Source: an uncultured Gammaproteobacteria bacterium | Lineage (GTDB): Bacteria; Patescibacteriota; Patescibacteriia; Magasanikbacterales; UBA922 | Direction: 5' to 3' | NCBI GenBank assembly: GCA_964522435.1 | Contig: CAZFUL010000002.1 | Coordinates: forward strand, 44,631 to 108,630 | DNA length: 64,000 nucleotides | Part shown: one piece after another, positions 26,437 to 43,769 of the stretch | Position numbering within the stretch: position 1 is the stretch's first letter | Layout: the number at the start of each line of letters is the position of its first letter | Made by a program: the position numbers and the translations under genes | Notes under the pieces: model-generated | Told to the model about the DNA's origin: nothing | Seen by the model: the letters and a program-made list of their open reading frames with translations, nothing else | Databases searched by the model: none

Positions 26437-26516
26437 TTCTCCAGTATTTTTTTGTAAAAAAATGCACTGGGGATGGCACGCAACGGGGTGGGATGTGGTT
26501 GTTGCGTGGTTTCTCC

Positions 26517-27257
26517 TTAGTTGGCGGCGTCAACCCCAGGGTCATCAGCCTCAGCCGCTCGATAATCGGGTGGTGGGTGGCAGACGACGTCCCCTTCTTG
26601 CAAGGGGTAGGGGCCGCCCTCTGCTGCCCCTTCAAACAGGGGCTGATTGAGGCTGTTGTTCCGCAACATCGCGGTGTAGTTGAGGCCGTACACCGCCGCA
26701 TAGCGGCCGAGGGTATCGGGGTCCTCTTCCTTGACGATCCCGTAGAGAAGAGATCCACAGCGCCTTGCGTCTTTGCGCTCGTTGTTGCTGGGTTGCGGCT
26801 TCTCTTCCTCTGGTTCAACGAGCGCTCCGGTCTTTTCATCATAATCTTTGGGGACAAAGTGTCCCAAGACGTCACCCGCTGGGTCGGCGAGCCCGGCGTT
26901 CAGACGCAGGAGCGTGTGTTCGTCTGAATTGTGGTAGATAATAAAACCGGTTGCCACGAAGAGCAAGGATGCTCCGACCTGCCACTTCCAGGGGAGCCGA
27001 GGGAATGTGCCGAGGTACACGATTGCTGCATGTACCGTCACCCCCAGAAAGATGATCCCGCTGAGCATTGGGAAGAAATTCTGGGCGCCAAACACCGCCG
27101 ACCAGGCAGTGCAGAAGATGAGCGTCATCGTTCCCCTGAGGAAGTTCTTCTGGGCTTTGGTAAACGGAGCTGTTTTCTTCAGGGGAGGAGGTTCTTCTTC
27201 GGGAAACTCCTGAGGGGGAGGTTCAGTGGAATCTGCTGGAGTGTATTTTTCTGTCAT
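26517..27257 (-). CDS. Compositionally foreign membrane protein: Pro/Glu-rich N-terminus, three TM helices, C-terminal soluble domain
   Basis: Coding GC about 58-60% against a background of about 40%. Codon bias CTC/CCC/GGG/AGG. Own promoter and a GAAGGAG ribosome-binding site. No family recognised. Confidence 0.55.
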   Translation of the reverse strand: MTEKYTPADSTEPPPQEFPEEEPPPLKKTAPFTKAQKNFLRGTMTLIFCTAWSAVFGAQNFFPMLSGIIFLGVTVHAAIVYLGTFPRLPWKWQVGASLLFVATGFIIYHNSDEHTLLRLNAGLADPAGDVLGHFVPKDYDEKTGALVEPEEEKPQPSNNERKDARRCGSLLYGIVKEEDPDTLGRYAAVYGLNYTAMLRNNSLNQPLFEGAAEGGPYPLQEGDVVCHPPPDYRAAEADDPGVDAAN

Positions 27258-27354
27258 GATGTTTCTCCTTCGGCGCTGAGGGGGGCGCCGAGATCTGTTG
27301 TGTATAGATCATATCCCTCTGTTTACCTCCAGTTAGAGAGAAATACGATGTTCG

Positions 27355-27383
27355 ACCCTAGCGCAGATTGGGGTTTTTGTCAA
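27355..27383 (-). promoter_or_regulatory. sigma70-like promoter for the foreign ORF at 26517-27257, TTGACA-N17-TAGGGT
   Basis: Read on the minus strand. A 5'UTR palindrome TCGGCGC-TGAGGGG-GCGCCGA at 27270-27291 lies between the promoter and the ribosome-binding site. Confidence 0.45.
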
Positions 27384-27405
27384 GCTAGGGGGGATATCCT
27401 AACGA

Positions 27406-27503
27406 TCCCTTTTCAGCATACAAGCACGAAAGCAACTCGCGTAGGGTGCCAGATGCACCCTACGCTGCGACTGCTTTCTTTGCCTGTATGCTGTAGCGGG
27501 ATA
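27406..27503. repeat. 97-nt long-hairpin repeat element, copy B
   Basis: 95% identical to 10611-10707. The inner stem GCGTAGGGTGC-CAGAT-GCACCCTACGC keeps its pairing through compensatory changes. Confidence 0.7.
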
Positions 27504-27540
27504 GGATTAGTTAATTTGTCTTACTTTTTTAGGGAGTATA

Positions 27541-27568
27541 AAAAAGCCCCTATACTATAGGAGCTTTT
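27541..27568 (-). terminator. Rho-independent terminator of clpB
   Basis: AAAAAGCCCCTATACTATAGGAGCTTTT, read on the minus strand. Confidence 0.6.
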
Positions 27569-27585
27569 AATATATATATTGATGC

Positions 27586-30228
27586 CTATTTTTTCTTAAC
27601 CGTAATACTATCCTCTTTAATACTTACTAACACCGTATCATTTTCTTGAATAGTCCCTTCAATAATTTGCAACGCAAGAGGATCGAGGAGTTCTCGTTGA
27701 ATAATGCGCTTCAGTGGACGGGCGCCAAGATGTGGATCAAAGCCTTTTTCTCCCAACCAATCTTTGGCTTTTTTATCAACCGTTAGGGTAATTTTCTTTT
27801 CTTGTAATCGCGCTATTACTGCTGCTATTTGCAAATCAACAATATGGCGAATTTGTTTTTTATCAAGCGGGTGAAACATGATAATGTCATCAATACGATT
27901 CAAAAACTCTGGTTTAAAATGCTCGCGTAAGGTATCCATGAGTTTTTTCTTAATAGTTTCCTCATGATGTTTCATGCCACCTTGGTTATTTTCGCCAAAG
28001 CCAAGTTCACCACTTTTGCCCATGCGCATAATCATCTCAGAGCCCACATTACTCGTCATGATAATAACCGTATTTTTAAAGTTTACTTTTCTTCCTTTGG
28101 CATCAGTTAATTGTCCATCTTCTAAAATTTGCAACATCACATTAAATACTTCTGGATGTGCTTTTTCTATTTCATCAAACAATACCACCGAGTAGGGGCG
28201 ACGACGAATTTTTTCTGTGAGTTGTCCACCTTCTTCATAACCAACATAGCCTGGGGCTGCACCAAACATTTTACTTACCGAATGTTTTTCCATGTATTCA
28301 CTCATGTCCACCCGAACAATGGCGTTTTCATCATTAAATAAAAACGTGGCAAGGGTTTTGGCGAGTTCAGTTTTTCCTACGCCTGTTGGACCCATAAAGA
28401 TAAATGAGCCAATAGGACGTTTTTCTTCAGAAATACCAGCACGAGAACGACGAATCGCATGCGATACGGCAGAAATGGCTTCTTCTTGACCAACCACTCG
28501 GGAAGATAATTCTTCTTCCATGCGAGCAAGTTTTTTGGTTTCACTCTCGAGCATTTTGGATACAGGAATTCCTGTCCAGCGAGAAACAACATTCGCAATA
28601 TCTTCTTCGGTGACTTCTTCTTTCAAAATAGCTCTGCCTTTTTGTACGGCAGTTAATTTTTTTTCTAATTGGGTGATTTCTTTTTCTTTTGCAGGAATTT
28701 GTGCGTAACGAATTTCTGCAACTTTTTGTAAATCACCACGGCGTTCGGTAATTTCTGCTTCTTGTTTTAAGGTATCAATATCTTTTTTTGCGGTACGAAT
28801 ATTGGTAATAATATCTTTTTCATTTTTCCAATGGACTTCTAATTCATTACTTTTTTCTCTGGTGTTTTCTAATTCTTGTTGCAATTTTTGCAAGCGAGAC
28901 TTTGAATCCGCATCATGTTCTTTTTTTAGCGCTTCAATTTCAATTTCTAATTTCATCATGTGGCGTTTCATTCTATCCAAATCATCAGGGAGAGAATCAA
29001 TTTCCATACGCAGGGCCGCGGTTGCTTCATCAACCAAATCAATCGCTTTATCTGGTAAAAAGCGATCAGAAATATAGCGACCAGATAATTCTACTGCCGC
29101 GACAATTGCATTGTCCGTAATGCGTACCCCATGATGCACTTCATATTTTTCTTTAATCCCACGTAAAATGGCAATAGCATCAGATTGCTCTGGTTCTTCT
29201 ACTAATACGGGTTGAAACCGTCGTTCAAACGCCGCATCTTTTTCTATATATTTTTGATATTCTTTCAGCGTCGTTGCGCCCACGGTATGAATTTCTCCAC
29301 GTGCTAAGGCGGGTTTTAACATGTTGCTTGCGTCAATCGCCCCATCACTTGATCCTGCCCCAACAATCGTGTGGAGTTCATCTAAGAATAAGATAATTTT
29401 TCCTTTGGATTCACGGGCTTCTTTGAGGACTGCTTTAAATCGTTCTTCAAATTCACCACGGAATTTTGTTCCGGCAACAAGGGCGCCAATATCTAAACCA
29501 ATCACTTCTTTTTCTTTTAAGGATTCTGGGACATCACCTTTCACAATACGCTGCGCGAGTCCTTCAACAATCGCCGTTTTTCCGACGCCTGGTTCTCCAA
29601 TAAGCACCGGATTATTTTTTGTTCGTCGTGATAACACTTGCATCACCCGGCGGATTTCATCATCACGCCCAATGACTGGATCTAATTGTTCATTACGCGC
29701 GCGCTCAGTAAAATTAATGCCGTATTTTTCTAGTGCTTGATACTTACTTTCTGGCGTTTGTGAATCCACGCGTTGGGAACCACGTACTTGCGCTAATACT
29801 TTTAAGATATCATCGTATTGCACACCTTCGCGTTGTAATGCGTCGCTAATAGGATTTTTTTGTTTTGCATAGGCAAGTAACAAATGTTCCACGCTAATAT
29901 ATTCATCACCCATGCGTTTTGATTCTTCTTGGGCTTGTTGCAACACAAAAAGCATGGCTTGGCCCATAAGCACCTGCCCAAGCCCGCCAGAGATATGACC
30001 AAACTGTTTGGGTAATACATCGATCATTGCCTGCACATCACGTTTAATAGCAATAAGATTGACATCTAATTTTTGTAGTACCGAAATCACCACCCCATCT
30101 TCTTGCTCTAATAGCGCCATAAAGAGGTGAGGAGGCTCTACATGGGGTTGATTATTTTCATGCGCAATATGACTGGCCCGTTGTAACGCTTCTTGAGATT
30201 TATTGGTAAAATTATTTGGGTTAAGCAT
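27586..30228 (-). CDS. clpB: ATP-dependent chaperone ClpB
   Basis: Two AAA+ modules: GEPGVGKT and GPTGVGKT. Middle coiled-coil domain. 880 aa. Confidence 0.9.
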
Positions 30229-30374
30229 AGGAGGGGAGTAATCAGTAATGAGTAAATAGAGAGATTATCACTCTATTATATAGACTGATAATACTATAGC
30301 AGATTGAAAAAAGTTGTCAATTGTGCGAAAATACCGAATATGCTGATGGGGTTACCTGTCAGCTATCATATCCT

Positions 30375-31142
30375 ATGACCATCCTTGGCGTTCGAATTGA
30401 TGCCTTGTCACCAAGTGCTGCTATACAACAGGTACAGGCGTTTTTGGGTTCTGATAGGCCACACATGGTTGTGACGCCGAATCCAGAAATGTTGGTAGCC
30501 GCGCAAAAAGATGTGTATTTTCGCGAAGTCTTGAATGAGGCCCATCTTTCTATTTGTGATGGAAAGGGGATCGCATTGCTGACCCGTGGAAACCTTACCC
30601 GCTATGCCGGAGTAGATATGATGGAAGATATTTGTGCACTTGCTGCTGCGGAAAAAAAACGTATTTTTTTGTTGGGTACAGGAACCCGGCATACGCTAGA
30701 AAAAGCAGCCGCAGCCCTGCAACAAGAATTTCCTACGCTTATTATTGCTGGCATGCATCCGGGTATGCCAATTACAGAAAAACCCTCCCCGCACGACGCC
30801 ACACGATTGATCTTGCACTATGATGCACCAGCGCAGGAAGAGCTTATTGATAGTATTATTGCTGCTGCACCAGATATATTGTTTGTCGCCTTTGGTCATT
30901 CCAAACAAGAAAAATGGATATATGAACATGTGGCTGAATTACCGAGTGTGCGAGTGGCTATGGGGATTGGTGGAGCAATTGATTTTTTTGCTGGTACTCG
31001 TCGTCGTGCGCCGCGCATGATGCAAGCGCTTGGATTAGAATGGTTGTGGCGATTGATACAACAGCCAACACGGATACGGCGTATTTGGCGGGCAGTGGTG
31101 GTATTTCCTATACTGTATTTTTCGAAACATAATCATACATAA
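30375..31142 (+). CDS. WecB/TagA/CpsF-family glycosyltransferase
   Basis: Family C-terminal motif GLEWLWRLIQQP. Start trimmed to MTILGVRID. Confidence 0.7.
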   Translation: MTILGVRIDALSPSAAIQQVQAFLGSDRPHMVVTPNPEMLVAAQKDVYFREVLNEAHLSICDGKGIALLTRGNLTRYAGVDMMEDICALAAAEKKRIFLLGTGTRHTLEKAAAALQQEFPTLIIAGMHPGMPITEKPSPHDATRLILHYDAPAQEELIDSIIAAAPDILFVAFGHSKQEKWIYEHVAELPSVRVAMGIGGAIDFFAGTRRRAPRMMQALGLEWLWRLIQQPTRIRRIWRAVVVFPILYFSKHNHT

Positions 31143-31150
31143 TTTCTTCT

Positions 31151-31897
31151 ATGCTTTCTCTTAAAAAAATTCGCCAACTGCAACAAAAAAAATACCGCTA
31201 TGAATACCGACAATTTTTGGTTGAAGGCGTAAAAGGGGTGCAAGAAGCTCTTGCCGCAAAGCGAGTTCGGTTGCTTATGATAGAAGAATCTAAACAACAG
31301 CTGCTGCATACGCTTATTATGGACGCAGCACAACAAGGCATAGAAATTCGTATTGTTTCTGCAAAAGATGCAGAGTCGGTTAAAACAACAGAAACATTTG
31401 CCGGCGTGTTAGCTGTATGTGATATGACGAGTGCATCACTTGCTGATGTGGCGGGAACGGTCATTTGTTTAGATACCCTGCAAGATCCGGGTAATGTGGG
31501 CACCATTATTCGCACTGCCGATTGGTTTGGTGTGTCTCATATTTTATTATCTGAAAATTGTGTAGACCCGTATAACGAAAAAACTGTCCGTAGTAGCATG
31601 GGATCCTTGTTTCACGTACAACTCTATCAATCAACCAATATAATTCAGGATGTGGGGTATTTGCAAAAACAGCATGGGTATCAGGTACATGGCTTAACCC
31701 TGCATGGCAGGCCACTGAGCCCTGATATCGTGTTTTCTGTGCGTGATTGTCTTGTCTTTGGCAGTGAATCCCATGGGTTATCGTCAGATCTTGAAAAAAT
31801 GCTTCATGCGCGCTACACTATTCCCGGCATTGGCCAAGCAGAATCCCTCAACGTTGCTATTGCAGCCGGGATTGTATTATCTCGAGTATCGCTATGA
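31151..31897 (+). CDS. TrmH/SpoU-family RNA 2'-O-methyltransferase (RlmB-like)
   Basis: SPOUT motifs LDTLQDPGNVGTIIRTA, GSESHGLS and ESLNVAIAAGIVL. Confidence 0.75.
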   Translation: MLSLKKIRQLQQKKYRYEYRQFLVEGVKGVQEALAAKRVRLLMIEESKQQLLHTLIMDAAQQGIEIRIVSAKDAESVKTTETFAGVLAVCDMTSASLADVAGTVICLDTLQDPGNVGTIIRTADWFGVSHILLSENCVDPYNEKTVRSSMGSLFHVQLYQSTNIIQDVGYLQKQHGYQVHGLTLHGRPLSPDIVFSVRDCLVFGSESHGLSSDLEKMLHARYTIPGIGQAESLNVAIAAGIVLSRVSL

Positions 31898-33375
31898 TAA
31901 AAGTAAGAACCCGTATACCGCCAAGTCCCACAGGCATGTTTCATGTGGGAAGTTTGCGTACCGCATTGTATAATTATTTGTATGCCAAAAAACATGGTGG
32001 TGAGTTTATTTTGCGTATAGAAGACACCGACCAAGAACGCTTTGTTCCTGGGAGCATGGAAAATATTATTGAAACCTTGGCTATTGCCGGTATTGCCCCA
32101 GATGAAGGTCCGTATATGACCGCAGAAGGAAGCATAGAAGAAAAAGGGGAGTATGGCCCATATGTTCAGTCTGCCCGCTTACCGATTTATAAACAATATG
32201 TTGATCAGCTTATTGCGCAAGGCCATGCCTATTATGCGTTTGATAGTGCAGACGCCTTAGAGGCAATGCGTGAACAACAACGTCTCAACAAGCAAGCTAC
32301 CCGCTATGATAGGGCGAGTATGAAAAATAGTTTTACCCTCTCAAAAGAAGAGGTAGAAGAACGGCTCGCAAAAGGAGAGGAGTATGTCGTCCGTATGAAG
32401 GTGCCAAGTGAGGGGAGTACGAGTTTTCATGATGTGGTCCGAGGAACCATTACGTTTGATAATAAAGAAGTAGATGATCAAATTTTGTTAAAGTCAGATG
32501 GCTTCCCAACCTATCATTTAGCAGTGGTGGTCGATGATCATCTTATGCAAATTACGCATGTTTCTCGTGGAGAAGAATGGTTACCGTCAACACCAAAACA
32601 TGTGTTGTTATATCAAATGTTTGGCTGGGACATGCCTGTATTTGCGCATCAACCCTTACTCGTGAATGAACAAAAACAAAAACTAAGTAAACGCCATGGC
32701 GATGTTTCGGTAAAAGATTTTTTGGAAAAGGGATATTTAATAGAAGCCTTGCTCAATTTTGTTGCGTTTTTAGGCTGGAATCCCAAAACAGAACAAGAAA
32801 TTTTTTCATTAGAAGAATTGATTGTTGCCTTTGATTTAGATCAAATATCAAAATCCGCCGCCGTCTTTAATCGAGAAAAATTGGATTGGTATAATAAACA
32901 ATACTTGATGAAATCTTCTGCACAAGAAGTCGCACGCCGAGCAAAACCGTTTTTTGATCAAGCCGGATTTACTCTTTCTGAACAAGACATTGCGCGTGTT
33001 ATTCCTTTAGAACAAGAGCGGGTAACCACCTTAGCAGAATTTCCAGCAGCCCTGTCATTTATATTTCAAGATACGTTATCGTATGCCCCTGAACTGTTGG
33101 TGTGGAAAAAAGATACGCGAGAACGATCAAGAGAAATATTGCAGCTCTTAGTCACACAGATGGATACCATGCTTGCTTGGACAAAAGAAGATATTGAAAA
33201 CAGTATCAAGAATTGGATTCAACAAGAACAGCTTGGGGTAGGAAATGTGCTTTGGCCCATGCGCACTGCCCTTTCTGGGCAGCAAAATTCGCCTGGTCCC
33301 TTTGAGATCGCAGCCGTATTAGGGAAAGAAAAAACCATACAGCGCTTGCAACAAGCGATTGACGTATTAGCTTAA
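31894..33375 (+). CDS. gltX: Glutamyl-tRNA synthetase
   Basis: HIGH-type motif PSPTGMFHVGSLRTALYNY. KLSKR (KMSKS-type) motif. Confidence 0.9.
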   Translation: MIKVRTRIPPSPTGMFHVGSLRTALYNYLYAKKHGGEFILRIEDTDQERFVPGSMENIIETLAIAGIAPDEGPYMTAEGSIEEKGEYGPYVQSARLPIYKQYVDQLIAQGHAYYAFDSADALEAMREQQRLNKQATRYDRASMKNSFTLSKEEVEERLAKGEEYVVRMKVPSEGSTSFHDVVRGTITFDNKEVDDQILLKSDGFPTYHLAVVVDDHLMQITHVSRGEEWLPSTPKHVLLYQMFGWDMPVFAHQPLLVNEQKQKLSKRHGDVSVKDFLEKGYLIEALLNFVAFLGWNPKTEQEIFSLEELIVAFDLDQISKSAAVFNREKLDWYNKQYLMKSSAQEVARRAKPFFDQAGFTLSEQDIARVIPLEQERVTTLAEFPAALSFIFQDTLSYAPELLVWKKDTRERSREILQLLVTQMDTMLAWTKEDIENSIKNWIQQEQLGVGNVLWPMRTALSGQQNSPGPFEIAAVLGKEKTIQRLQQAIDVLA

Positions 33376-33902: not shown

Positions 33903-34010
33903 ACAATCGCAAAAACAGTCTTAAAAGGGCTGTTTTTTGTATTCTTTCGCATGGTTGAACTCTTCTCCTACTTTTGATAGTATAGTGCCAATATACCCCT
34001 TATTCCTTTT

Positions 34011-35176: not shown

Positions 35177-35268
35177 ATACTGTCAGGTATACAACGCCAA
35201 GCCATCATTATATAAACGCAGTCTTAACCAGGCTGCTTTTTATATATCCCAAAGGCAACCCTCCATGA

Positions 35269-35297
35269 TTGACTTTTTTCTTTGCTTATGATAGATA
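35269..35297 (+). promoter_or_regulatory. sigma70-like promoter for the foreign ORF at 35344, TTGACT-N17-TAGATA
   Basis: Followed by the 5'UTR palindrome CCGGAA-G-TTCCGG at 35313-35325 and an AAGGAGGG ribosome-binding site at 35331-35338. Confidence 0.45.
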
Positions 35298-35343
35298 AGC
35301 TGCACAACTGAACCGGAAGTTCCGGAACGTAAGGAGGGATAGC

Positions 35344-35898
35344 ATGTCAATTAGCTTTGGATTGCGTCGTTTTCTGCAGCAGCTCCGCTACGATGAGCTC
35401 CGGCTGTTCCAACAGTTCACACAGATGGCTGGTACGGGAGATCGCCTGTGTCTGAAAGATATTCCACCGGAGAAGGGAGAAGCGGTGAGCGCCTTCTTTG
35501 CACTGTTGGTGGAACAGGATATCCTCACCCTCGTGAGCGAACAAGGGGCACATGGGAATATCTGGCGTCTCAACCGGCGTTTGTATGACCAGCTGCTTCC
35601 TGCCAGCTACCAGACCCCCAAGGGGATTGTGCTGCTGGTGGCACAGGAATTCCAGCAGCCTGTGGCACATATTTTGGGTCATGAACACCGCAAACCTGCT
35701 GTGTTTGCCACGAAAGTGGTTGCCTGGCTCATGTACAACAATGGCCGGGGCACGACCTCCCAAGCTGATATCGGTAAGGAGCTGAACCGGGCCCAGTCAA
35801 CCGTATGCACCGATATCATCTTCATTGGGCAGGCAATGCTCGAAGATCCGGCGTTCAACGCTCGGGTGATGCGGTTATACGCCCGCATCTACGGCTGA
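35344..35898 (+). CDS. Compositionally foreign putative DNA-binding protein: N-terminal winged-helix-like segment and C-terminal HTH
   Basis: Coding GC about 55% with CTG/GGC/CGC codon bias. C-terminal HTH-like segment TTSQADIGKELNRAQSTVCTDI. Strong ribosome-binding site. Confidence 0.55.
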   Translation: MSISFGLRRFLQQLRYDELRLFQQFTQMAGTGDRLCLKDIPPEKGEAVSAFFALLVEQDILTLVSEQGAHGNIWRLNRRLYDQLLPASYQTPKGIVLLVAQEFQQPVAHILGHEHRKPAVFATKVVAWLMYNNGRGTTSQADIGKELNRAQSTVCTDIIFIGQAMLEDPAFNARVMRLYARIYG

Positions 35899-36035
35899 TT
35901 TTCCCACCTGAAACGAGAGAATCCCACCTTTCAGGGCGGCAATTCTCGTTTCCCAAGACGATGCCACCCAATCTCTGTATATACTCGTATGTATGTAGAG
36001 ATTGGAGAACAACGGCATCGTTTTGTGAAAAAATA

Positions 36036-36068
36036 AAACCCCGACACATGTGTCAGGGTTTTTTAATC
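36036..36068. terminator. Bidirectional rho-independent terminator
   Basis: AAAATAAAA-CCCCGACACATGTGTCAGGG-TTTTTT. Confidence 0.6.
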
Positions 36069-36084: not shown

Positions 36085-36642
36085 TTATGGAACCACGTTA
36101 ATTTCTAAGGCATTAAATTGTTGTGTTCCGGTTTGTTCGCAAGATAAGTAAATTGTTTGTGGTGGATTCTTGACGCTAATGGTAAATGGTTGCGCATCGT
36201 AGCCGTCCAAGATAATTGATTTTGTTCCAATCGTAATTTTTTGTGGGTCTGCAGAGAATCCATCTAATAACACTGTCGTGCCATTTTTTACCAGCATTTT
36301 GTTGGTAGGAATGGTTTTACAATGTTCTATTTGGATACGCCAATCTCCGTAGGTCGCTAATGCTTTTTGATAGGTATCTGGATTTGCTTTTAAATGTTTT
36401 CCTGAAACAACTGGCGCGGCATTGTTGCCTCCGGTTGCTGGGGCGTCTTCATTTTTCTTTGGAAGAGTCATGGTGTTGTCACGTTCCACTGCGGTGCCTT
36501 CTGCAAAAGGAGAGGTGGAATTGCCATCAACAGTCATTGTCTCTTTTTTTGCATTGGTAATAAGAATACTCACAATGAATACCAATACAATAATACCGGC
36601 AATGATCAACTGTTCACGATACTTGGTAATGATGTCATTCAT
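36085..36642 (-). CDS. Hypothetical N-terminally anchored secreted protein
   Basis: Single N-terminal TM helix, then a Thr/Gly/Asn-rich beta-type domain. 185 aa. Confidence 0.45.
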   Translation of the reverse strand: MNDIITKYREQLIIAGIIVLVFIVSILITNAKKETMTVDGNSTSPFAEGTAVERDNTMTLPKKNEDAPATGGNNAAPVVSGKHLKANPDTYQKALATYGDWRIQIEHCKTIPTNKMLVKNGTTVLLDGFSADPQKITIGTKSIILDGYDAQPFTISVKNPPQTIYLSCEQTGTQQFNALEINVVP

Positions 36643-37433: not shown

Positions 37434-37436
37434 TAT

Positions 37437-38345
37437 ATGATTTCTTTTCTTCGTATTATCCGATTTGCGTTGCAGGACATGGTGCGTAACCTGAGCTTGT
37501 CCTTCATGACATTGCTGATTCTTATTCTCATGTTATTGTCTATCAATACCCTTATTATTGTGCGGGTATTTACTGACCAGACTATTGAAACCGTGAAACA
37601 GCAAATAGATGTGAGTGTGTATTTTCATCATGAAGCAAAAGATGACAGTATAGAAGAAATGCGCCAATATATTACTGCCTTTCCAGAAGTTACCGATGTA
37701 AGCTATTACAATAAAGAACAAGTGTTAGAACAATTTCGTGAAACACATAAAGATAATCCAGATATTATTGCCTCCTTGTCTGAATTAGCAGATAATCCGC
37801 TTGGCGCCACCATGATTATTAAAACGCGTGATCCAGCAGATTACAAAAAGGTTATTGATGCGTTAAATGTTCCGGAGTATGACGGTATTATTGAAGCAAA
37901 AACCTTTGCAGACACAGAGCAAGCCATTAGCCGAGTGACGCTCATTACCAAACAAGTAGAACAAGCGGTATATGCCTTAACGGCCTTGTTTGCCATTATT
38001 GCCTTCTTTGTTATTTTTAATACTGTACGCGTCGCCATTTATACCCAAAGAACAGAGATTAGTATTAAAAAATTGGTCGGCGCAACAGATTGGTTTGTGC
38101 GTGGTCCGTATATTGTAGAATCAGTTTTATTTACCATCCTGAGTGTTGCGATAACAACTGGGATTATGTTTTTTGTCATTCGCTTTTTAGACCCCTATGT
38201 GAGTGTATTATTGAATAAAGAGGCATTCTTGACAAATTACGTTGAGTCTCATATACTGGTGCTCATAGCGACTCAATGTATCGTGGTTTTCTTCTTAACG
38301 ATTGCCACCAGTGGGTTAGCAATGAGGAAGTACCTTAGAACGTAG
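37437..38345 (+). CDS. ftsX: Cell division permease FtsX
   Basis: 302 aa. N-terminal TM, periplasmic loop, three C-terminal TM helices. Directly follows ftsE. Confidence 0.75.
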   Translation: MISFLRIIRFALQDMVRNLSLSFMTLLILILMLLSINTLIIVRVFTDQTIETVKQQIDVSVYFHHEAKDDSIEEMRQYITAFPEVTDVSYYNKEQVLEQFRETHKDNPDIIASLSELADNPLGATMIIKTRDPADYKKVIDALNVPEYDGIIEAKTFADTEQAISRVTLITKQVEQAVYALTALFAIIAFFVIFNTVRVAIYTQRTEISIKKLVGATDWFVRGPYIVESVLFTILSVAITTGIMFFVIRFLDPYVSVLLNKEAFLTNYVESHILVLIATQCIVVFFLTIATSGLAMRKYLRT

Positions 38346-38398
38346 TTGTCTAAGTTATATAGGATATACCGCCTACGCTAAAGCTACGGCGAACACAG

Positions 38399-38469
38399 TC
38401 GGGGATCGTCTAACGGTAGGACTCTAGGTTTTGGTCCTAGTTATCGGGGTTCGAATCCCTGTCCCCGAG
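38399..38469 (+). tRNA. tRNA-Gln (anticodon UUG)
   Basis: TCGGGGATCGTCTAACGGTAGGACTCTAGGTTTTGGTCCTAG...GGGGTTCGAATCCCTGTCCCCGAG. Anticodon loop TTTTGGT. Confidence 0.7.
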
Positions 38470-38576
38470 CAAAATATAAATACACCCATATGGGTGTATT
38501 TATATTTATGATAGTGAAAGGGATTCGAAGGGCGCGAGAGCCCCGACTAAATGTCGGGGCGGTGCGCAGCGCCCCG

Positions 38577-38593
38577 GTACCCGAACGGAGTGA
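38577..38593 (+). repeat. 17-nt direct repeat of the tRNA-Gln 3' end, AATCCCTGTCCCCGAGC
   Basis: Exact copy of 38453-38469, about 110 nt downstream of the tRNA. The intervening segment is GC-rich and carries hairpins. Confidence 0.6.
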
Positions 38594-38605
38594 GGGGGAA
38601 TCCCT

Positions 38606-38634
38606 GTCCCCGAGCTAAAACAAAAAGCGGCCAA
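38606..38634 (+). terminator. Rho-independent terminator
   Basis: AAAAAGCGGCC-AACA-GGCCGCTTTTTG. Confidence 0.7.
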
Positions 38635-38727
38635 CAGGCCGCTTTTTGTTTATATACATTTGACACATTTTCTCAGCGGGTGTAATATCCCCTATAGGGG
38701 GATATATAATAAATTATTTTTATTTCT

Positions 38728-38994
38728 ATGTATAAACCAAAAAATGAAAAAGAACGAATTACGCATCGACTAAAAATTTCTTTTGGTCATATGAAAAAAA
38801 TTTTAACCATGGTAGAAGATGGTGCCTATTGCGTTGATGTTATTCATCAATCGAAAGCGGTGCAAAAAGCACTCAAAGAAGTCGATCATCTTATTTTAGA
38901 AAATCACCTTAATACTTGTGCTGCAGACGCCATAAGAGATGGAGAAGAAAAAAAAGCGATTGAAGAAATTATGGGCATTATAAGAAAAACGTAA
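38728..38994 (+). CDS. csoR: CsoR/RcnR-family metal-sensing transcriptional repressor
   Basis: 88-aa all-helical protein with Cys/His ligand positions (YCVDVIHQ ... NTCAAD). Precedes a copper ATPase. Confidence 0.7.
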   Translation: MYKPKNEKERITHRLKISFGHMKKILTMVEDGAYCVDVIHQSKAVQKALKEVDHLILENHLNTCAADAIRDGEEKKAIEEIMGIIRKT

Positions 38995-39022
38995 TCCTAT
39001 CGTATCGTTTACTTACTTAATC

Positions 39023-41305
39023 ATGTATATGCTTTACAAAACACAAACGTTTTCTGTTAAGGGGATGCATTGCGCGTCATGCTCCAATATTATTCAAAGA
39101 AAGCTTAAGAAGATTGAAGGAGTAAGTAATGCAGAAGTAAATTATGGTACAGAAACAGCAACGGTTGCCTTTGATGAAAGTAAAACGAACTCGCATCATC
39201 TATCAGAAGCCATCAAACCTCTCGGGTACTCTCTGGTGATGGCCCAAACAGAAAATCATTCCGTACATGCAGGGGCAAACCAATCTAAAGAGGAAAAACA
39301 AAGAGAAATGAAAGATTTTAGAATAAAGGTTATGTCAGTAATTCCTTTGGCGATGTTTAGCATACTCCTAATGGCTTGGGATATATTTGGGCAACTAGAT
39401 ATACTTGCTGAACCATCTAACGTGCTAAAAGAATTTTTTCACCATCTTCTTCCCATTTTTGCAACCTATACGCTTTTTATTGTCGGTAAGCCATACATTC
39501 TTGGGGTATATCGTTTTTTGCGTTACGGTAAAGCAAACATGGATACCCTTATTGGTATTGGAACATTGGTCGCATTTTTGTATAGTTTTATTGTTTCAGC
39601 ATTTGAAGAATCACTTGCTCCGTATATTAATGTAGAGCACAGCTACTACGATGTTACGATCGTGGTTATTGCGTTTATCACTCTTGGAAAATATTTGGAG
39701 GCGACATCAAAGATTAAAACAGGTGATGCTATTGAAAAGCTTCTCAATCTTCAATCAAAAACTGCGCTTATTATCCGAGATGGACAGGAAATAGAAGTTC
39801 CTATTATTGATGTTAAACATGATGATAGTATTATTGTAAAACCTGCCTCAAGAGTTCCAGTGGATGGTGTTATTGTTGAAGGATCCTCTTTTATTGATGA
39901 ATCAATGATTACGGGTGAGCCTATGCCCGTGGAAAAAAAAATAGGGGATACGGTTGTTGCGGGCACGATGAATACGTCAGGAAGCTTCACCTTTAGCGTA
40001 ACAAAAGTTGGGTCAGAAACTTTTTTATCTTCTATTATTCGTATGGTTCAAGAGGCGCAAGGCAGTAAGGCGCCAATTCAAGCATTGGCAGATAAAATTT
40101 CTTCTGTCTTTGTACCTATAGTAATGGTGCTTTCATGTGTTGCACTTGCGCTGTGGCTGCTTATTGGGACACAATATGTTGGTTTTTCACAAGCGCTTTC
40201 GTATGGGCTTACTTCTTTTGTTGGGATTCTTGTTATTGCCTGTCCTTGTGCCTTAGGTCTTGCAACCCCAACAGCCATAATAGTAGGTGTTGGAAAAGGT
40301 GCACGAGAAGGAATTCTTATTAAAGACGCTGCAACCCTTCAAAAATTTCATAAAGTAACTACTCTTTTGGTAGATAAAACAGGCACGATAACAAAAGGAA
40401 AACCCGAGGTGGTGTCAGTAAAAGCACTTGCTGATATGTCTGAAGAAAGAATTATTTCTACTCTTGCTGCTTTGGAATCTCGCTCAGAACACCCCATTGC
40501 ACATGCAATTATTTCTTATGCAAAAGAACGATCGCTTAACATATCAGAAGTTCAAGAGTTTGAACTCGTTAAAGGAAAAGGCATAACAGGAAACGTAGAG
40601 GGGGTTGTCTATGTTGCTGGAAATAGTACGCTCATTGCTGATACACATCTTTCATTTGATAAGACAGCATTTCTTGAAGAAACGAAGCAAGGAAAAACGC
40701 CTGTGATGTTGGCAAATAAAGAAAGCGTTTTGGGTATTGTTATGGTAGCAGATAAGATAAAGCCTGAAGCAAAAGATGCTGTTGAACAATTAGATCAGCT
40801 TGGGATAAAAGTTATTATGTTAACAGGTGATGATAAACATACCGCCCGTTTTATCGCTGATCAAGCAGGAATTGATGAAGTCGTTGCAGAAGTGTTGCCT
40901 CAAGACAAATTAGAAAAAATTAAAGAATTACAACAAAAAGGTGAAATTGTTGCTATGGCAGGAGATGGGGTGAATGATGCTCCAGCGCTTGCTCAAGCAG
41001 ATGTTGGAGTCGCTATGGCAACAGGAACCGATGTAGCAATTGAATCAGCAGGAATTACACTCCTACACGGAGACATGTCCAAGCTCGTCAAGGCGATAAA
41101 ACTTTCTAACATAACGATGCGAGGAATAAAACAAAATTTGTTTTGGGCGTTTATTTATAATATTATTGGTATACCCCTTGCTGCAGGATTGTTTTTTCCT
41201 GTCTTTGGGTGGCTTCTCAATCCTGTATTTGCTGGTGCGGCCATGGCCTTTAGTTCTGTTTCTGTTGTATTAAATTCTTTACGTTTAAAACAACGCAAGC
41301 TTTAA
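39023..41305 (+). CDS. copA: Copper-translocating P1B-type ATPase
   Basis: N-terminal HMA motif GMHCASCSN. Transmembrane CPC motif. DKTGTIT phosphorylation site. GDGVNDAPAL hinge. Confidence 0.9.
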   Translation: MYMLYKTQTFSVKGMHCASCSNIIQRKLKKIEGVSNAEVNYGTETATVAFDESKTNSHHLSEAIKPLGYSLVMAQTENHSVHAGANQSKEEKQREMKDFRIKVMSVIPLAMFSILLMAWDIFGQLDILAEPSNVLKEFFHHLLPIFATYTLFIVGKPYILGVYRFLRYGKANMDTLIGIGTLVAFLYSFIVSAFEESLAPYINVEHSYYDVTIVVIAFITLGKYLEATSKIKTGDAIEKLLNLQSKTALIIRDGQEIEVPIIDVKHDDSIIVKPASRVPVDGVIVEGSSFIDESMITGEPMPVEKKIGDTVVAGTMNTSGSFTFSVTKVGSETFLSSIIRMVQEAQGSKAPIQALADKISSVFVPIVMVLSCVALALWLLIGTQYVGFSQALSYGLTSFVGILVIACPCALGLATPTAIIVGVGKGAREGILIKDAATLQKFHKVTTLLVDKTGTITKGKPEVVSVKALADMSEERIISTLAALESRSEHPIAHAIISYAKERSLNISEVQEFELVKGKGITGNVEGVVYVAGNSTLIADTHLSFDKTAFLEETKQGKTPVMLANKESVLGIVMVADKIKPEAKDAVEQLDQLGIKVIMLTGDDKHTARFIADQAGIDEVVAEVLPQDKLEKIKELQQKGEIVAMAGDGVNDAPALAQADVGVAMATGTDVAIESAGITLLHGDMSKLVKAIKLSNITMRGIKQNLFWAFIYNIIGIPLAAGLFFPVFGWLLNPVFAGAAMAFSSVSVVLNSLRLKQRKL

Positions 41306-41314
41306 TTTTTATAT

Positions 41315-42307
41315 ATGGAAAATACTAATCTTATTGTTATTTTTATCACAGGACTTATTACGGGTGGATTAACCTGTCTTGCGACACAAGGAGGATTGTT
41401 AGCGAGTACTATTGCACAACGAGAAGAAGAACGCCTCAAAGAAGGAGTAACACAGGGGAATGCCAAACCAATCTTCTACTTTATACTAGCTAAACTTGTT
41501 GCGTATACGCTTTTAGGGTTTCTTTTGGGGTGGTTTGGGTCTCTTTTTCAACTCTCAATTAAAGCACAAGCCATTATGCAATTTGTGGTTGCAATTTTTA
41601 TGATCGGTACCGCGTTGAATCTTTTGAATGTTCATCCAATTTTCCGTTATGTTGTTATTCAGCCACCAAAATTTCTGACTCGTCTTGTGCGAAGTACCTC
41701 AAAGAGTAAAGACCTCTTTGCTCCAGCATTGCTTGGTGCGTTTACGGTATTTATTCCCTGTGGTACGACACAAGCCATGATGGCACTCTCTATTGGATCA
41801 GCAAGTCCACTCTATGGTGCGGCTATTCTTTTTGCCTTTGTCCTTGGAACCTCACCCTTGTTTTTTATTCTGGGGTACTTTGCGACAAAATTGGGTGATG
41901 CTTACCAAAAGAAATTTTTTAGGGTTGCGGCCGTTGCTATTATTCTTTTGGCATTATATAACGTAAAAGGTGCGCTTGTATTAAGTGGATTTAATATTGG
42001 GGGAGAGGCTAAAGCAGAGCTTTCAACACCAATTTCTACTAGTGATGAGGTTACGATCCAGGTTCAACCGTCTGGATACAGTCCAAATACTATATTTGTA
42101 AAAGCTGGATCCACAGTTACCTTGCATATTGAAAATGATGATGCATATACCTGTGCTCAGGCATTTACAATTCCCAAACTGGGTATTCAAGAAATAGTCG
42201 CTCCTGGTCAACAACGTACCATTGAGTTTACGGCGCCGTCGAAAGCGGGAAATATTGTTTTTTCTTGTAGTATGGGAATGTATAAAGGCATTATTACTGT
42301 TATATAA
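41315..42307 (+). CDS. Membrane permease (TauE/SafE-like) with a C-terminal cupredoxin-like metal-binding domain
   Basis: N-terminal polytopic region. The C-terminal about 90 aa has a beta sandwich with candidate Cu ligands H..C..H..M (TVTLHIEND...FSCSMGMYKG). Confidence 0.5.
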   Translation: MENTNLIVIFITGLITGGLTCLATQGGLLASTIAQREEERLKEGVTQGNAKPIFYFILAKLVAYTLLGFLLGWFGSLFQLSIKAQAIMQFVVAIFMIGTALNLLNVHPIFRYVVIQPPKFLTRLVRSTSKSKDLFAPALLGAFTVFIPCGTTQAMMALSIGSASPLYGAAILFAFVLGTSPLFFILGYFATKLGDAYQKKFFRVAAVAIILLALYNVKGALVLSGFNIGGEAKAELSTPISTSDEVTIQVQPSGYSPNTIFVKAGSTVTLHIENDDAYTCAQAFTIPKLGIQEIVAPGQQRTIEFTAPSKAGNIVFSCSMGMYKGIITVI

Positions 42308-42312
42308 TCTAT

Positions 42313-42528
42313 ATGGAAAAAAAGATTCAGATCAACATTGAGGGGATGCACTGTACCAGTTGTGCGATGAATATCGACGGGGAGCTTGAAGATATGGGAG
42401 TTAAAGAATCTAGTACAAATTATGCGAAAAGTAACGCAACGGTTACTTTTGATGAGAGTAAAATTTCTGAAGAAAGTATTGTGGAGGCTATCAAAAAATT
42501 AGGCTATCTAGCAAATATTTCAGAATAA
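42313..42528 (+). CDS. copZ: Copper chaperone CopZ (HMA domain)
   Basis: GMHCTSCAMNI metal-binding motif. 71 aa. Confidence 0.8.
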   Translation: MEKKIQINIEGMHCTSCAMNIDGELEDMGVKESSTNYAKSNATVTFDESKISEESIVEAIKKLGYLANISE

Positions 42529-42574
42529 AATTTTTTATTTAATTTAAATTATATTGAAAATCTTAAACAAAAAA

Positions 42575-42604
42575 CCCTGCACTAGAACGGTGCAGGGTTT
42601 TTTA
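42575..42604 (+). terminator. Rho-independent terminator of the cop operon
   Basis: CCCTGCAC-TAGAACG-GTGCAGGG followed by TTTTTT. Confidence 0.7.
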
Positions 42605-42713
42605 TCCTGTTTTCATTTTTATGACAACGAAGATTGATACAAATGAAAATGGGCTGGGGGAGAGTCCAGCTCTCCCACCCTCCTATTTTTTTGTGCAGTG
42701 GCTAATCCTGCGG

Positions 42714-43133
42714 CTAGCGGCGGCGCGTGAGTCCGAATTTGAAGAACTCCCACAGAATCGCGCCAAACACGTCATTGTGGATCTGGTGGATCTGCCGGCA
42801 TTCGCCAATCAGTCGCGGATGCGTGATGCTCTCGAAGCCCCGGGGCATCAAGAAGTCATCATCGGCGATGCCCGCCACGATGGCCGCGTCGAAGATGTCG
42901 GTGAACGCCGCTTCTTCCTGGTCGGAAGAAAGCCCCTGAAACAGCCGCTCCCAGGCCGTGAGCGCCTTGGCGCTGCTCCGTGAAAACACCCACGTCCAGA
43001 AGGTTGGTCTCGGCAGCGCGACCCAGCCCGCATCTGTCTTTGCTTGAGTGCTGATTGGAGGTCGCTGTTTCGGGAAGGTGCTGAAGTATTTCACCCTGTC
43101 CCCGTGGTTGATACCTGTGATCAGGAAGATCAT
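42714..43133 (-). CDS. Compositionally foreign small soluble protein (140 aa), unknown function
   Basis: Coding GC about 58%, CTG/GCC/CGC bias. Start MIFLITGINHGDR, preceded by CCAAGGAG. The upstream GTG-extended ORF was trimmed. No family recognised. Confidence 0.5.
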   Translation of the reverse strand: MIFLITGINHGDRVKYFSTFPKQRPPISTQAKTDAGWVALPRPTFWTWVFSRSSAKALTAWERLFQGLSSDQEEAAFTDIFDAAIVAGIADDDFLMPRGFESITHPRLIGECRQIHQIHNDVFGAILWEFFKFGLTRRR

Positions 43134-43174
43134 GCGTTGCTCCTTGGTGGATATGGCAGTATTGCCATGACCGC

Positions 43175-43203
43175 AGTACACAAAAAAAACGAGCTTTTGT
43201 CAA
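43175..43203 (-). promoter_or_regulatory. sigma70-like promoter for the foreign ORF at 43133-42714, TTGACA-N17-TGTACT
   Basis: Read on the minus strand. 5'UTR palindrome ATGGCA-GTAT-TGCCAT at 43153-43168. Immediately upstream is an array of CAATTAACA / TGTTAATTG repeats at 43205-43290. Confidence 0.4.
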
Positions 43204-43280
43204 GCCGAGCAATTAACATTTAACAATTAGCAATTAACAAATTTGTTTATTAATTATGTATCCTAAATCAACATCGTTTG

Positions 43281-43769
43281 TTAATTGATTTCCACAATAG
43301 TAAAAATTTTTTTATTGAATGTAATTGTTTCTCCCAATTTTTTGCCAAGTAATAGATTCCCCAAGGGAGAGGTATGAGAAATAATACCTTTTGCCGGATT
43401 CGTTTCTGCTGATCCTAAAATCGTATAGCTTCGTTGCTCTGCCGTATCACTCATGATAGTAACGGTATGACCAATCTGCACGCGGTTGTTGTCTTGTTGA
43501 GGAGAAATAATCTGCGCATGATTCAGTTGCGCCTCTAATTCTAAAATAGTCTGGTTGATTCCACGCAGCCGACCTTTGGCTAATTGATATTCAACGTTTT
43601 CAGAAAAATCACCCATCTCTGCTAGGCGACTTACTTCTTGTGCAGCAGCAGGGCGTTCTGCATAGAGGCGGTCTAATTTTTTTTGTAAGGCCTCAAATTT
43701 TTGCTGGCTTAATATATTATCCCGTGTTTGATGGGTGTATTTGCCAGGTTTGCGGTAAGGGAGTTGCAT
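43281..43769 (-). CDS. greA: Transcription elongation factor GreA
   Basis: N-terminal coiled-coil (EALQKKLDRL) and C-terminal FKBP-like domain. 162 aa. Confidence 0.8.
   Translation of the reverse strand: MQLPYRKPGKYTHQTRDNILSQQKFEALQKKLDRLYAERPAAAQEVSRLAEMGDFSENVEYQLAKGRLRGINQTILELEAQLNHAQIISPQQDNNRVQIGHTVTIMSDTAEQRSYTILGSAETNPAKGIISHTSPLGNLLLGKKLGETITFNKKIFTIVEIN

Follow-up and report, generated by a model that had tools for sequence, protein, structure and literature searches.

Phage morons are extra genes, each with its own promoter and terminator, that lie between two prophage genes and often deviate in GC content. The three cassettes described here are like them in having one gene per unit, promoter- and terminator-like elements and a deviant GC content, and in leaving the resident genes undisrupted, but unlike them they are lodged amid core housekeeping genes with no prophage, and PHROGs provides no match. 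Of the elements that an autonomous moron unit would need, -35 boxes with 17-nt spacers and 3' hairpins are seen, but the -10 boxes are poor and a promoter scan accepts none of the three. Integron cassettes are likewise small single-ORF units, and imperfect palindromes lie beside two of the cassettes here (a 100-nt hairpin by cassette 1 and a 72-nt hairpin after cassette 2), but the cassettes here do not form an array, being scattered along the sequence, and have promoter-like elements of their own. No attC cores (GTTRRRY/RYYYAAC) were seen on inspection of the hairpin sequences, and an integron cassette was rejected; there is no tyrosine recombinase or intI among the scanned ORFs and no array, and the cassette 1 hairpin stands 5' of the gene.

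Another parallel is found in Patescibacteria, for which individually transferred genes, natural competence and comEC have been described (PMC12455944). The genomic islets of Patescibacteria/CPR surveyed there are, like the cassettes, short, atypical single-gene segments in a small, streamlined genome, without mobility genes, for which DNA uptake is plausible; islets similar to the cassettes were also seen here in related genomes. The cassettes differ from these islets in that all three cargo genes are orphans, and no donor can be named because none has a detectable homologue; they also keep two marks of the donor, a Shine-Dalgarno sequence (SD) and a C at -1, that the recipient genome does not use. 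It seems probable to us that each of the three segments is a foreign piece of DNA acquired separately and recently, a genomic islet in this sense, and our best reading of the cassettes is as moron-like, horizontally acquired orphan genes rather than as a demonstrated system; no evidence shows that they act together. An earlier note on this DNA had proposed them as a candidate undescribed system; we see no new kind of system in them.

Composition and location of the islands

The window, that is, the whole 64-kb stretch of DNA that was analysed, has a mean GC content of 40.5%, and its GC profile is not uniform. Islands at 26441-27510 (55.1%), 35291-36000 (53.5%) and 42621-43210 (56.1%), which are the sole ones of at least 400 bp that lie at least 12 points over the mean, appear where they had been proposed. 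Each holds one long ORF, and all three ORFs show coding-type 3-base periodicity (codon-position GC). About 100 nt at the right end of the first island (27405-27503) are a native repeat and were excluded from the foreign cargo. The cassettes proper have a GC content of 53-56% and the following approximate extents, ORFs and flanks.

26467-27400, minus strand: cassette 1 islet, ~0.93 kb, ~56% GC (GC profile, sequence, flanking Pfam matches)
25959-26378, plus strand, and 27586-30228, minus strand: 4Fe-4S ferredoxin gene and clpB, which enclose the convergent gap of cassette 1
26517-27257, minus strand: cassette 1 ORF, 246 aa, GC1/2/3 0.63/0.44/0.65
35246-36024, plus strand: cassette 2 islet, ~0.78 kb
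35218-35245: terminator of the DUF2238 gene, flanking cassette 2
36035-36062: terminator of the gene at 36085-36642 (minus strand), flanking cassette 2
35344-35898, plus strand: cassette 2 ORF, 184 aa, GC1/2/3 0.62/0.39/0.64
42607-43205, minus strand: cassette 3 islet, ~0.6 kb
42569-42603: terminator of the HMA/CopZ-like gene, flanking cassette 3
43281-43769, minus strand: greA, whose 3' end flanks cassette 3
42714-43133, minus strand: cassette 3 ORF, 139 aa, GC1/2/3 0.54/0.46/0.77

GC3 is 0.64-0.77 in the cassette ORFs and 0.17-0.47 in native genes, and the codon usage of each cassette departs from that of native genes (G 178-202, null ~47, p<0.004) in a way that control native genes do not. 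Codon bias had been said to differ among the three, which was taken to argue for separate foreign origins, but neither claim is upheld: codon usage gives a permutation p of 0.54 overall and 0.33-0.88 for pairs, dinucleotide distances between cassettes are 112-137 (native-to-native 132 +/- 43), and on both measures the cassettes are indistinguishable.

The neighbours recognized through Pfam have housekeeping functions (SUF operon, ferredoxin, ClpB, GltX, FtsEX, CsoR-CopA, GreA), the immediate flanks being SUF/ferredoxin/ClpB for cassette 1, DUF2238/FtsEX for cassette 2 and CopZ/GreA for cassette 3. Each island occupies a convergent (3'-3') gap between intact native terminators of housekeeping genes, with cassette 2 placed exactly between its two; the cassettes are 7-8 kb apart and all three fall within 17 kb of the window. 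Such locations support a foreign origin, and with GC, GC3, codon usage, SD use and the base at -1 all unlike those of native genes, the horizontal acquisition put forward earlier is well supported. Composition is the sole basis for the direction and source of transfer.

Might the islands have been created during assembly, by chimeric reads from a higher-GC community member or by synthetic or contaminant sequence? We regard this as very improbable. It would fit a record that is probably metagenome-assembled or sparsely sampled, with all proteins singletons from one 185 kb NCBI contig, as well as the sharp compositional boundaries and cassette sequences that match nothing else. However, native sequence runs in the expected gene order on both sides, so that six precise chimeric joins would be needed, all of them exactly between intact native terminators and never within a gene; independently assembled relatives carry comparable islets, and the cargo is made up of whole genes, each with signals to match, where random fragments would be expected of chimeric reads. 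A synthetic insertion, also suggested earlier, is unsupported.

Expression signals and translation starts

The signals of the three cassettes, as read from the sequence and from predicted folding, are these.

27264-27383, minus strand: cassette 1 signals, with -35 TTGACA (27378-27383), N17 and -10 TAGGGT (27355-27360)
27270-27291, minus strand: cassette 1 palindrome TCGGCGC/GCGCCGA
27264-27269, minus strand: cassette 1 SD AAGGAG
26477-26508, minus strand: terminator-like hairpin 3' of cassette 1, CACGCAAC..GTTGCGTG (fold)
35269-35337, plus strand: cassette 2 signals, with -35 TTGACT (35269-35274), N17 and -10 TAGATA (35292-35297)
35313-35325, plus strand: cassette 2 palindrome CCGGAA-G-TTCCGG
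35331-35337, plus strand: cassette 2 SD AAGGAGG
35910-35952 and 35954-36025, plus strand: two stable hairpins 3' of the cassette 2 ORF, fold z = -6.8
43140-43203, minus strand: cassette 3 signals, with -35 TTGACA (43198-43203), N17 and -10 TGTACT (43175-43180)
43153-43168, minus strand: cassette 3 palindrome ATGGCA-GTAT-TGCCAT
43140-43145, minus strand: cassette 3 SD AAGGAG
42652-42683, minus strand: hairpin 3' of cassette 3, followed by a T-rich tract, GGGTGGGAGAG..CTCTCCCCCAGCCC (fold)

The promoter-like boxes, palindromes and SDs first pointed out in the earlier note are thus all in place. Strong AAGGAG(G) SDs stand 6 nt 5' of the ATG in all three cassette ORFs, and each cassette has a 5'UTR palindrome with arms of 6-7 bp and a 3' hairpin, with a terminator-like site at 42670-42653, 3' of the cassette 3 ORF. 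What had been called a canonical promoter with a 17-nt spacer holds for the TTGAC(A/T) boxes and the spacer but not for the word canonical, as the -10 boxes agree at just 3-4 of 6 positions and for this reason none of the three cassette promoters passes a sigma-70 consensus scan. Shuffled sequences equal the best promoter score of each cassette in 7.5-27% of cases and have a TTGAC[AT] hexamer within 160 nt in 6-10% of cases for each, so that only its joint occurrence is suggestive. The leader palindromes, present in all three as claimed, have unrelated sequences, so that there is no common operator. Perfect stems of 6 bp or more in the 60 nt ahead of a gene turn up in 5-8% of shuffles and before 5 of 32 native genes, so that a leader stem in three of three cassettes is modestly above chance, but the pattern was picked post hoc.

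An SD core of at least 5 nt is found in none of ~50 native ORFs, and even a 4-mer in just two of 38 long ones, in agreement with the earlier observation that native genes mostly lack such sites; the combination of AGGAG, a start codon and high GC3 picks out only the three cassette ORFs in the whole window. The base at -1 is T in 38 of 41 native genes (93%) and C in the cassette genes, and native upstream regions are G-poor. The 16S gene lies outside the window. The layout shared by the cassettes consists of generic features of any SD-using bacterium, and is conspicuous because the recipient itself does not use it. With such features, unrelated palindromes and no shared DNA, the proposal that a shared architecture marks functionally related modules is not sustained.

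GC-rich intergenic segments in an AT-rich genome are also how large structured non-coding RNAs are found, and strong folding is predicted for the hairpin regions at their flanks (z = -4.7 to -9.3), but that the islands encode such RNAs rather than proteins is extremely unlikely given the strong codon-position GC periodicity, the stop-free frames of 139-246 codons, the correctly spaced SD and ATG and the three TM-like helices of cassette 1. The strongest fold, moreover, is that of the native repeat outside the ORF; no Rfam family reaches its gathering score in the window except three tRNAs, and relaxed E-values, applied to islands 1 and 2, give just generic hairpin matches. An OLE-, GOLLD- or ROOL-like RNA was rejected, as there is no covariance-model match and codon periodicity is strong. 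The 3' hairpins of cassette 2 have no other copy in the window and belong to no Rfam family.

Three orphan proteins

The cassette 1 product (246 aa, pI 4.8) has a Pro/Glu-rich N-terminus followed by three long hydrophobic helices at about residues 34-110 by hydropathy, placed at 34-57, 61-81 and 90-110 in an AF2 model (pLDDT 46.6); the C-terminal ~135 aa have a fold without assignment. It is predicted to be an orphan three-helix membrane protein, has no match in Pfam, PHROGs, PADLOC, NCBIfam or PDB, and among 5.8 billion clusters matches itself alone.

The cassette 2 product (184 aa, pI 9.0) is predicted to be all-helical (AF2 pLDDT 43.7). The one sign of a family is a resemblance, below threshold, to DnaA domain IV: residues ~89-181 match Pfam PF08299 Bac_DnaA_C with E=1.8e-4 and 21.9 bits (cut-off 31.5), and NCBIfam DnaA models with E=1.2e-4 and 21.3 bits (cut-off 343.9). 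These residues align to the last ~90 positions of the DnaA models, including the C-terminus of TIGR00362, which form the DnaA-box-binding HTH domain, but unlike DnaA the protein lacks an AAA+ domain and scores far under the family cut-offs, and family membership was rejected for that failure. The 'double-HTH DNA binder' of the earlier note has this C-terminal-half match as its sole basis and is not supported; we would describe the protein as an orphan, basic and helical, with a half weakly like DnaA domain IV and DNA binding as a lead. The window shows no enrichment of DnaA boxes. This protein was searched most fully of the three: a full HMMER search of 1.84 billion representatives finds it alone, and there is no PDB sequence match. 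With PADLOC it gives the only match of any cassette protein, to PDC-S19 (E=0.04, 11 bits), the other two giving none, and at 11 bits a known anti-phage defence protein was rejected.

The cassette 3 product (139 aa, pI 8.0, no hydrophobic segment) is predicted to be a small soluble orphan. The public gene call in island 3 is an antisense ORF at 42621-42983 (plus strand); GC3 is 0.77 in the minus frame versus 0.54 in the plus frame, and composition and SD favour the minus-strand ORF, although this ORF is less certain than those of the other two cassettes.

Searches of protein clusters, plasmids and viral contigs with all three proteins yielded no homologue, nor did those of phages (cassette 2 protein and cassette 1 DNA) or metagenome contigs (cassettes 1 and 3); phage DNA gave no match, and alternative reading frames gave no Pfam match. 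That the ORFs belong to no recognisable family, as had been said, holds for all three.

Acquisition and possible sources

No recombinase or transposase is present among the ORFs scanned in the window, no integrase, terminal inverted repeat or target duplication at the cassettes, and no shared DNA or end repeats between them. No cassette has significant end repeats of its own, and none recurs elsewhere in the window or among the 80 related loci; an IS- or MITE-type element was therefore rejected. Nor do the three sites show direct repeats of the att type, pieces of an integrase, or homology to phages or plasmids. No tRNA gene adjoins them, the nearest being at least 1.3 kb away. As a separate observation, tRNA-Gln has its 3' end repeated 145 nt downstream, with a GC-rich filler between the copies, which is a clear element scar nearby.

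We think it unlikely that the cassettes are what survives of larger integrated elements (prophage, plasmid or ICE), nearly all deleted, with one moron-like gene left per site. An autonomous promoter-to-terminator unit of atypical GC is what defines a phage moron, the DnaA-domain-IV-like HTH of cassette 2 is of a kind known from replication and regulatory proteins of mobile elements, and the tRNA-Gln scar would be of a piece with such a history; against it are the clean sites just described, their distance from tRNA genes and alternative frames devoid of Pfam matches. In the absence of integrase, att repeat, terminal inverted repeat and target duplication, the likeliest route of entry for genomic islets would be uptake of short DNA fragments and their integration through illegitimate or microhomology-based recombination, or else an older element that left no trace.

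On the islet reading, each cassette would have arrived as a complete one-gene unit, with -35 box, weak -10, stem-loop leader of 35-90 nt, SD, ORF and 3' hairpin, from a gene pool of ~55-60% GC with SD-dependent initiation. The recipient would be a ~40% GC chromosome whose own genes initiate without an SD, with G-poor upstream regions and T at -1, and the landing sites would be promoter-free convergent gaps between native terminators, where insertion breaks nothing and would be tolerated. One donor may have supplied all three. Three cassettes within 17 kb that are alike in codon usage and all have a leader palindrome do show somewhat more order than independent events predict.

An alternative is that the three belong to one functional set, made up of a membrane protein, a DNA-binding regulator and a small effector, which came from one donor element, was spread over neutral sites close by and would form an undescribed accessory system, for example in host interaction or defence. 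Codon usage and dinucleotide signature are alike, the cassettes cluster, their layout is identical, with a leader stem-loop beside the SD, and all three proteins are orphans. We nevertheless hold such a set to be distinctly unlikely, since the unrelated palindromes mean that one regulator cannot serve all three, no DNA is shared, PADLOC and PHROGs give no matches, essential housekeeping operons separate the genes, and relatives hold similar lone islets with unrelated cargo. A more specific version, in which one unsampled donor, such as the host bacterium of a presumably episymbiotic cell or that host's mobile element, contributed an accessory module of membrane protein, DnaA-IV-like DNA binder and small partner on donor-type translation signals, seems quite improbable; were it true, the module would be expressed through a separate SD-dependent route in a cell whose other genes initiate without an SD.

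The closest relatives of the genome (GltX 51-60%, ClpB-GltX synteny common) are MAGs labelled 'uncultured Gammaproteobacteria'; a Patescibacteria-like (CPR-like) recipient is suggested by GltX similarity of ~45-50% to Patescibacteria-labelled genomes. Upstream regions in the 80 related loci are equally SD-poor, and comparable higher-GC single ORFs, mostly SD-led, occur in loci L002 (13691-13963), L023, L041 (thymidylate kinase), L062 and L065, while L003 has a 63% GC PNP gene without a clear SD. The ferredoxin|clpB gap measures just 43 bp in L003, and in L005 another gene, of native GC, occupies it, in a comparison with distant relatives (GltX 51-60%) in which synteny is lost at the sites of cassettes 2 and 3.

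As genomic islets, the cassettes would be a clean, well-delimited case of genes captured very recently by a Patescibacteria-like genome of streamlined type, in which the foreign genes retain the GC, codon usage and ribosome-binding signals of the donor and the recipient's start-site grammar, with no SD and U at -1, differs from theirs. Such islets could link uncultured episymbionts to hosts or donors, and could be used to probe the fate of SD-led genes under SD-independent translation; their three proteins enlarge the pool of true orphans, without relatives among billions of sequences.

The native repeat next to cassette 1 is a near-perfect ~100-nt hairpin (27405-27503, fold z = -9.3) adjoining the islet 5' of the gene. 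It was rejected as foreign cargo because it is dispersed in the native sequence: another copy, 95% identical and with one compensatory pair, lies at 10610-10708, where there is no cassette nearby.

Compositional islands and their genes

The earlier note had claimed three high-GC segments, and when GC is profiled at 500 bp over the 64 kb, three clear peaks above the window mean of 40.5% bear this out. With 120-bp windows, the islands extend over 26441-27510 (55.1%), 35291-36000 (53.5%) and 42621-43210 (56.1%), and under a strict criterion (at least 12 points over mean GC, 400 bp or longer) the window has no island besides these three. Each holds one single-gene cassette; we use the names C1, C2 and C3 for the cassettes and for their proteins.

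Features of the cassettes and order of the surrounding genes (window positions)
26517-27257, minus strand: C1 ORF, 246 aa
35344-35898, plus strand: C2 ORF, 184 aa
42714-43133, minus strand: C3 ORF, 139 aa
26477-26508: own 3' hairpin of C1
35910-36025: own 3' hairpin of C2
42652-42683: own 3' hairpin of C3
26388-36 and 27537-70: native terminators flanking C1, intact
35218-45 and 36035-62: native terminators flanking C2, intact
42569-603: native terminator flanking C3, intact, left side only
Before C1: sufS, sufBD, sufC, DUF59 gene, two ferredoxins
C1 to C2: clpB, tagA-like, spoU-like, gltX, DUF378, tRNA-Thr, DUF2238
C2 to C3: unknown gene, ftsE, ftsX, tRNA-Gln, csoR, copA, DsbD-like, CopZ-like
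After C3: greA, DUF11 surface protein

The GC1/2/3 values of the three ORFs have a periodicity of the coding type (C1 0.63/0.44/0.65; C2 0.62/0.39/0.64; C3 0.54/0.46/0.77), which, as the Rfam matches in the window are three tRNAs only, rules out the islands as structured RNAs; a relaxed-threshold Rfam search of islands 1 and 2 gave generic hairpin matches only. The public gene call in island 3 is an antisense ORF at 42621-42983 on the plus strand (120 aa, P0006 in the protein collection). GC3 and the Shine-Dalgarno (SD) sequence favour the minus-strand ORF as the C3 gene over this antisense call, which was probably the choice of a gene caller whose model was trained on the SD-less host.

Elsewhere in the window, GC falls to 28-36% over 17260-19227 (GC3 as low as 0.17), where three ORFs of 156, 130 and 229 aa have no Pfam match. 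This AT-rich island may be foreign or evolve fast, and its compositional sign is opposite to that of the cassettes.

Codon usage and translation signals

GC3 is 0.64-0.77 in the cassettes compared with 0.17-0.47 in ~50 native ORFs, the resident genes of the recipient. When the synonymous codon usage of each cassette was set against native usage, G was 178-202, a value reached by no permutation (permutation mean ~47), and control native genes gave G of 43-67. An SD core of at least 5 nt is absent from all of the ~50 native ORFs checked, in line with the claim that native genes mostly lack ribosome-binding sites, and across the whole window AGGAG, a start codon and high GC3 are combined only in the three cassette ORFs. 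The base just before the start codon is T in 38 of 41 native genes (93%) and C in the three cassette genes. Upstream of these 41 native start codons, which were taken from the whole window, the sequence is G-poor (5-15% G) and without SD, and native genes often have a TATAAT-like hexamer just 2-7 nt 5' of the ATG. T at -1 is also enriched in close relatives (0.5-0.8), and SD motifs are missing before long ORFs in almost all of 80 related loci. This suggests that translation initiation in the lineage is SD-independent, possibly leaderless or of an extended-anticodon type. On these sequence features, a horizontal origin of the three cassettes is well supported.

It had also been argued, from a codon bias said to differ among the three, that their foreign origins were separate. 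Codon usage among them does not differ significantly (p=0.54 overall, 0.33-0.88 pairwise), and the dinucleotide signatures are alike, with distances among cassettes of 112-137 compared with 132 +/- 43 among random native fragments. Because codon usage and dinucleotide signatures are indistinguishable, the cassettes would be compatible with one donor pool, in a comparison of low power.

Promoters and leaders

All of the motifs quoted for the three cassettes are present: TTGAC(A/T), a 17-nt spacer and a weak -10 box (TAGGGT, TAGATA and TGTACT), a perfect 6-7 bp palindrome in each leader (the 5'UTR between the promoter-like boxes and the ATG), and AAGGAG(G) 6 nt 5' of each ATG. To call the promoters canonical goes too far, as a standard sigma-70 consensus scan rejects all three and accepts several native promoters nearby (for example TTGACA-17-TATACT at 38229 and TTGACA-16-TATAGT at 30320), and the observed scores are equalled in 7.5-27% of shuffles. 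A perfect or near-perfect -35 box has a 6-10% chance per cassette in shuffles; only its joint presence in all three is suggestive.

Comparable palindromes turn up in 5-8% of shuffles and precede 5 of 32 native genes, and their presence in three of three leaders is modestly unusual for a pattern chosen post hoc. A stem-loop in each leader, the proximity of the cassettes and their common compositional class leave some room for a coordinated system, and an undescribed one had been proposed. However, the three palindromes are unrelated to one another in sequence, which argues against one common regulator, and nothing positive supports such a system. Of the matching architecture, what stands is that the layout is the same in all three, but it is generic for genes of an SD-using donor and, on the simplest account, stands out solely against a recipient without SD or C at -1.

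Setting and boundaries

The neighbours of the cassettes are ordinary chromosomal genes, with no integrase or transposase among the window ORFs scanned, and every cassette occupies a convergent (3'-3') gap. That the cassettes were brought in by a chimeric assembly is unlikely, since six exact joins, placed between intact terminators, would be required. The cassettes have no DNA in common with each other, the rest of the window or the 80 related loci, and inverted or direct repeats at their ends do not exceed chance; candidates for shared ends, TIRs or TSDs proved to be chance-level short repeats, such as a 10-mer in C1 (expected count ~0.5).

It is possible that the cassettes are remnants of larger elements, and one element scar is present in the window, at tRNA-Gln. 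This tRNA (38399-38470) has its own terminator and then ~100 nt of GC-rich filler with a stable fold, ending in a 22-nt direct repeat (95%; 38598-38619 versus the tRNA 3' end at 38453-38474), and 38399-38619 resembles an att scar left by an integrative element of which almost nothing remains. There is, however, no such scar at the three cassette sites. Separately, the terminators after tRNA-Thr (33911-33942) and after the DUF2238 gene (35214-35245) are 78% identical over 32 nt, which suggests duplicated or convergent modules.

Upstream of C1 lies a near-perfect ~100-nt hairpin (27405-27503; fold z = -9.3), a second copy of which, at 10610-10708, is 95% identical and differs by a compensatory pair (GCGTAGGG..CCCTACGC versus GCATAGGG..CCCTATGC). 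Both copies are 16-22 nt upstream of a minus-strand TTGACA -35 box, that of tRNA-Glu for the copy at 10610-10708 and that of C1 for the other. Because the copy at 10610-10708 is in a native context, the C1-side hairpin is not cargo, and its reading as a cassette part (attC, origin or sRNA) was rejected. No Rfam family matches the repeat, and the 80 related loci lack it; its candidate identities are a native palindromic repeat, a MITE and an sRNA.

Cargo proteins

A word-indexed search of 5.8 billion protein clusters with C1, C2 and C3 returned self matches or none, and full HMMER with C2 against 1.84 billion representatives returned C2 only. With tblastn and blastn, no relatives were found among plasmids (all three cassettes) or phages (C2 protein and C1 DNA), nor did a PDB sequence search give any; scans of viral contigs with C1, C2 and C3 and of metagenome contigs with C1 and C3 were empty; exact-sequence contig look-ups gave no matches for cassette or native proteins; and the other reading frames of the cassettes gave nothing against Pfam. 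For C2 and C3, tblastn also gave weak matches in GltX regions across many loci (E 0.17-9), which do not count as independent and fall short of significance.

Pfam, PHROGs, PADLOC and NCBIfam yielded only a weak signal to DnaA domain IV, in C2, a protein predicted to be basic and helical. The match covers residues 89-181, with E ~1e-4 against the Pfam domain and three NCBIfam DnaA models and scores well under the Pfam and NCBIfam cut-offs; that C2 might bind DNA is a lead, nothing more. Action on DnaA boxes was rejected, as the window has 10 boxes versus 21 expected and thus no enrichment. C1 is acidic, is rich in Pro and Glu at the N-terminus and has three long hydrophobic helices; its C-terminus looked LysM-like by eye, an assignment that was dropped as profile and PDB searches did not support it. 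C3 is predicted to be small and soluble. Single-sequence AF2 models of C2 (pLDDT 43.7) and C1 (pLDDT 46.6) are of low confidence and were not used for fold search because a pLDDT of 44-47 is too poor.

Recipient and related loci

The proteins of the recipient are singletons, all from one 185,058-bp NCBI contig. The top relatives of its GltX (51-60%) are from MAGs labelled 'uncultured Gammaproteobacteria', followed at ~45-50% by Saccharibacteria, Doudnabacteria, Moraniibacteriota and other Patescibacteria, and the seven closest loci have the order SUF-ferredoxin-ClpB-TagA-SpoU-GltX in common (ClpB identity 61-75%). Because of these GltX relatives and this gene order, we infer a Patescibacteria-like recipient.

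Related Patescibacteria-like genomes hold single-gene islets, short segments of higher GC, of the same kind. In locus L003, a purine-nucleoside-phosphorylase (PNP) gene of 63% GC (islet 2201-3280) is one gene from the C1 site, and in L002 (islet 13620-14040) a 90-aa orphan, led by AGGAGG and followed by a hairpin terminator of its own, sits between two native genes. Further SD-led ORFs of higher GC, mostly orphans, are in the islets L023 8014-8517, L041 19608-20528 (a thymidylate kinase), L062 191-721 and L065 13666-15755. Most of these islets have an AGGAGG-type SD and some a terminator hairpin, and besides several orphans their cargo includes PNP and thymidylate kinase, both enzymes of nucleotide salvage. 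The convergent ferredoxin-clpB gap, which in the window (26379-27585) contains C1 and the hairpin repeat, is variable, since it is 43 bp in L003 (3598-3640) and in L005 (4231-5491) contains another gene, of native GC, whose 227-aa membrane-anchored product differs from C1. A survey of Patescibacteria has described individually transferred genes, islands and competence genes (PMC12455944).

The simplest account would be three recent captures of short foreign DNA fragments, each a complete monocistronic unit whose donor used SD and had ~55-60% GC, with the captured units persisting in neutral convergent gaps. We class the cassettes of this CPR-like genome as genomic islets or moron-like orphan genes, which are of a known kind; their value lies mainly in how sharply the translation signals contrast with those of the recipient and in a cargo that consists wholly of orphans.

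Farther along the window, an ORF of 1283 aa (48490-52341) has native composition and no Pfam match at E <= 0.001; upstream of it, at 46385-46939, is a gene for an ECF-type sigma factor.
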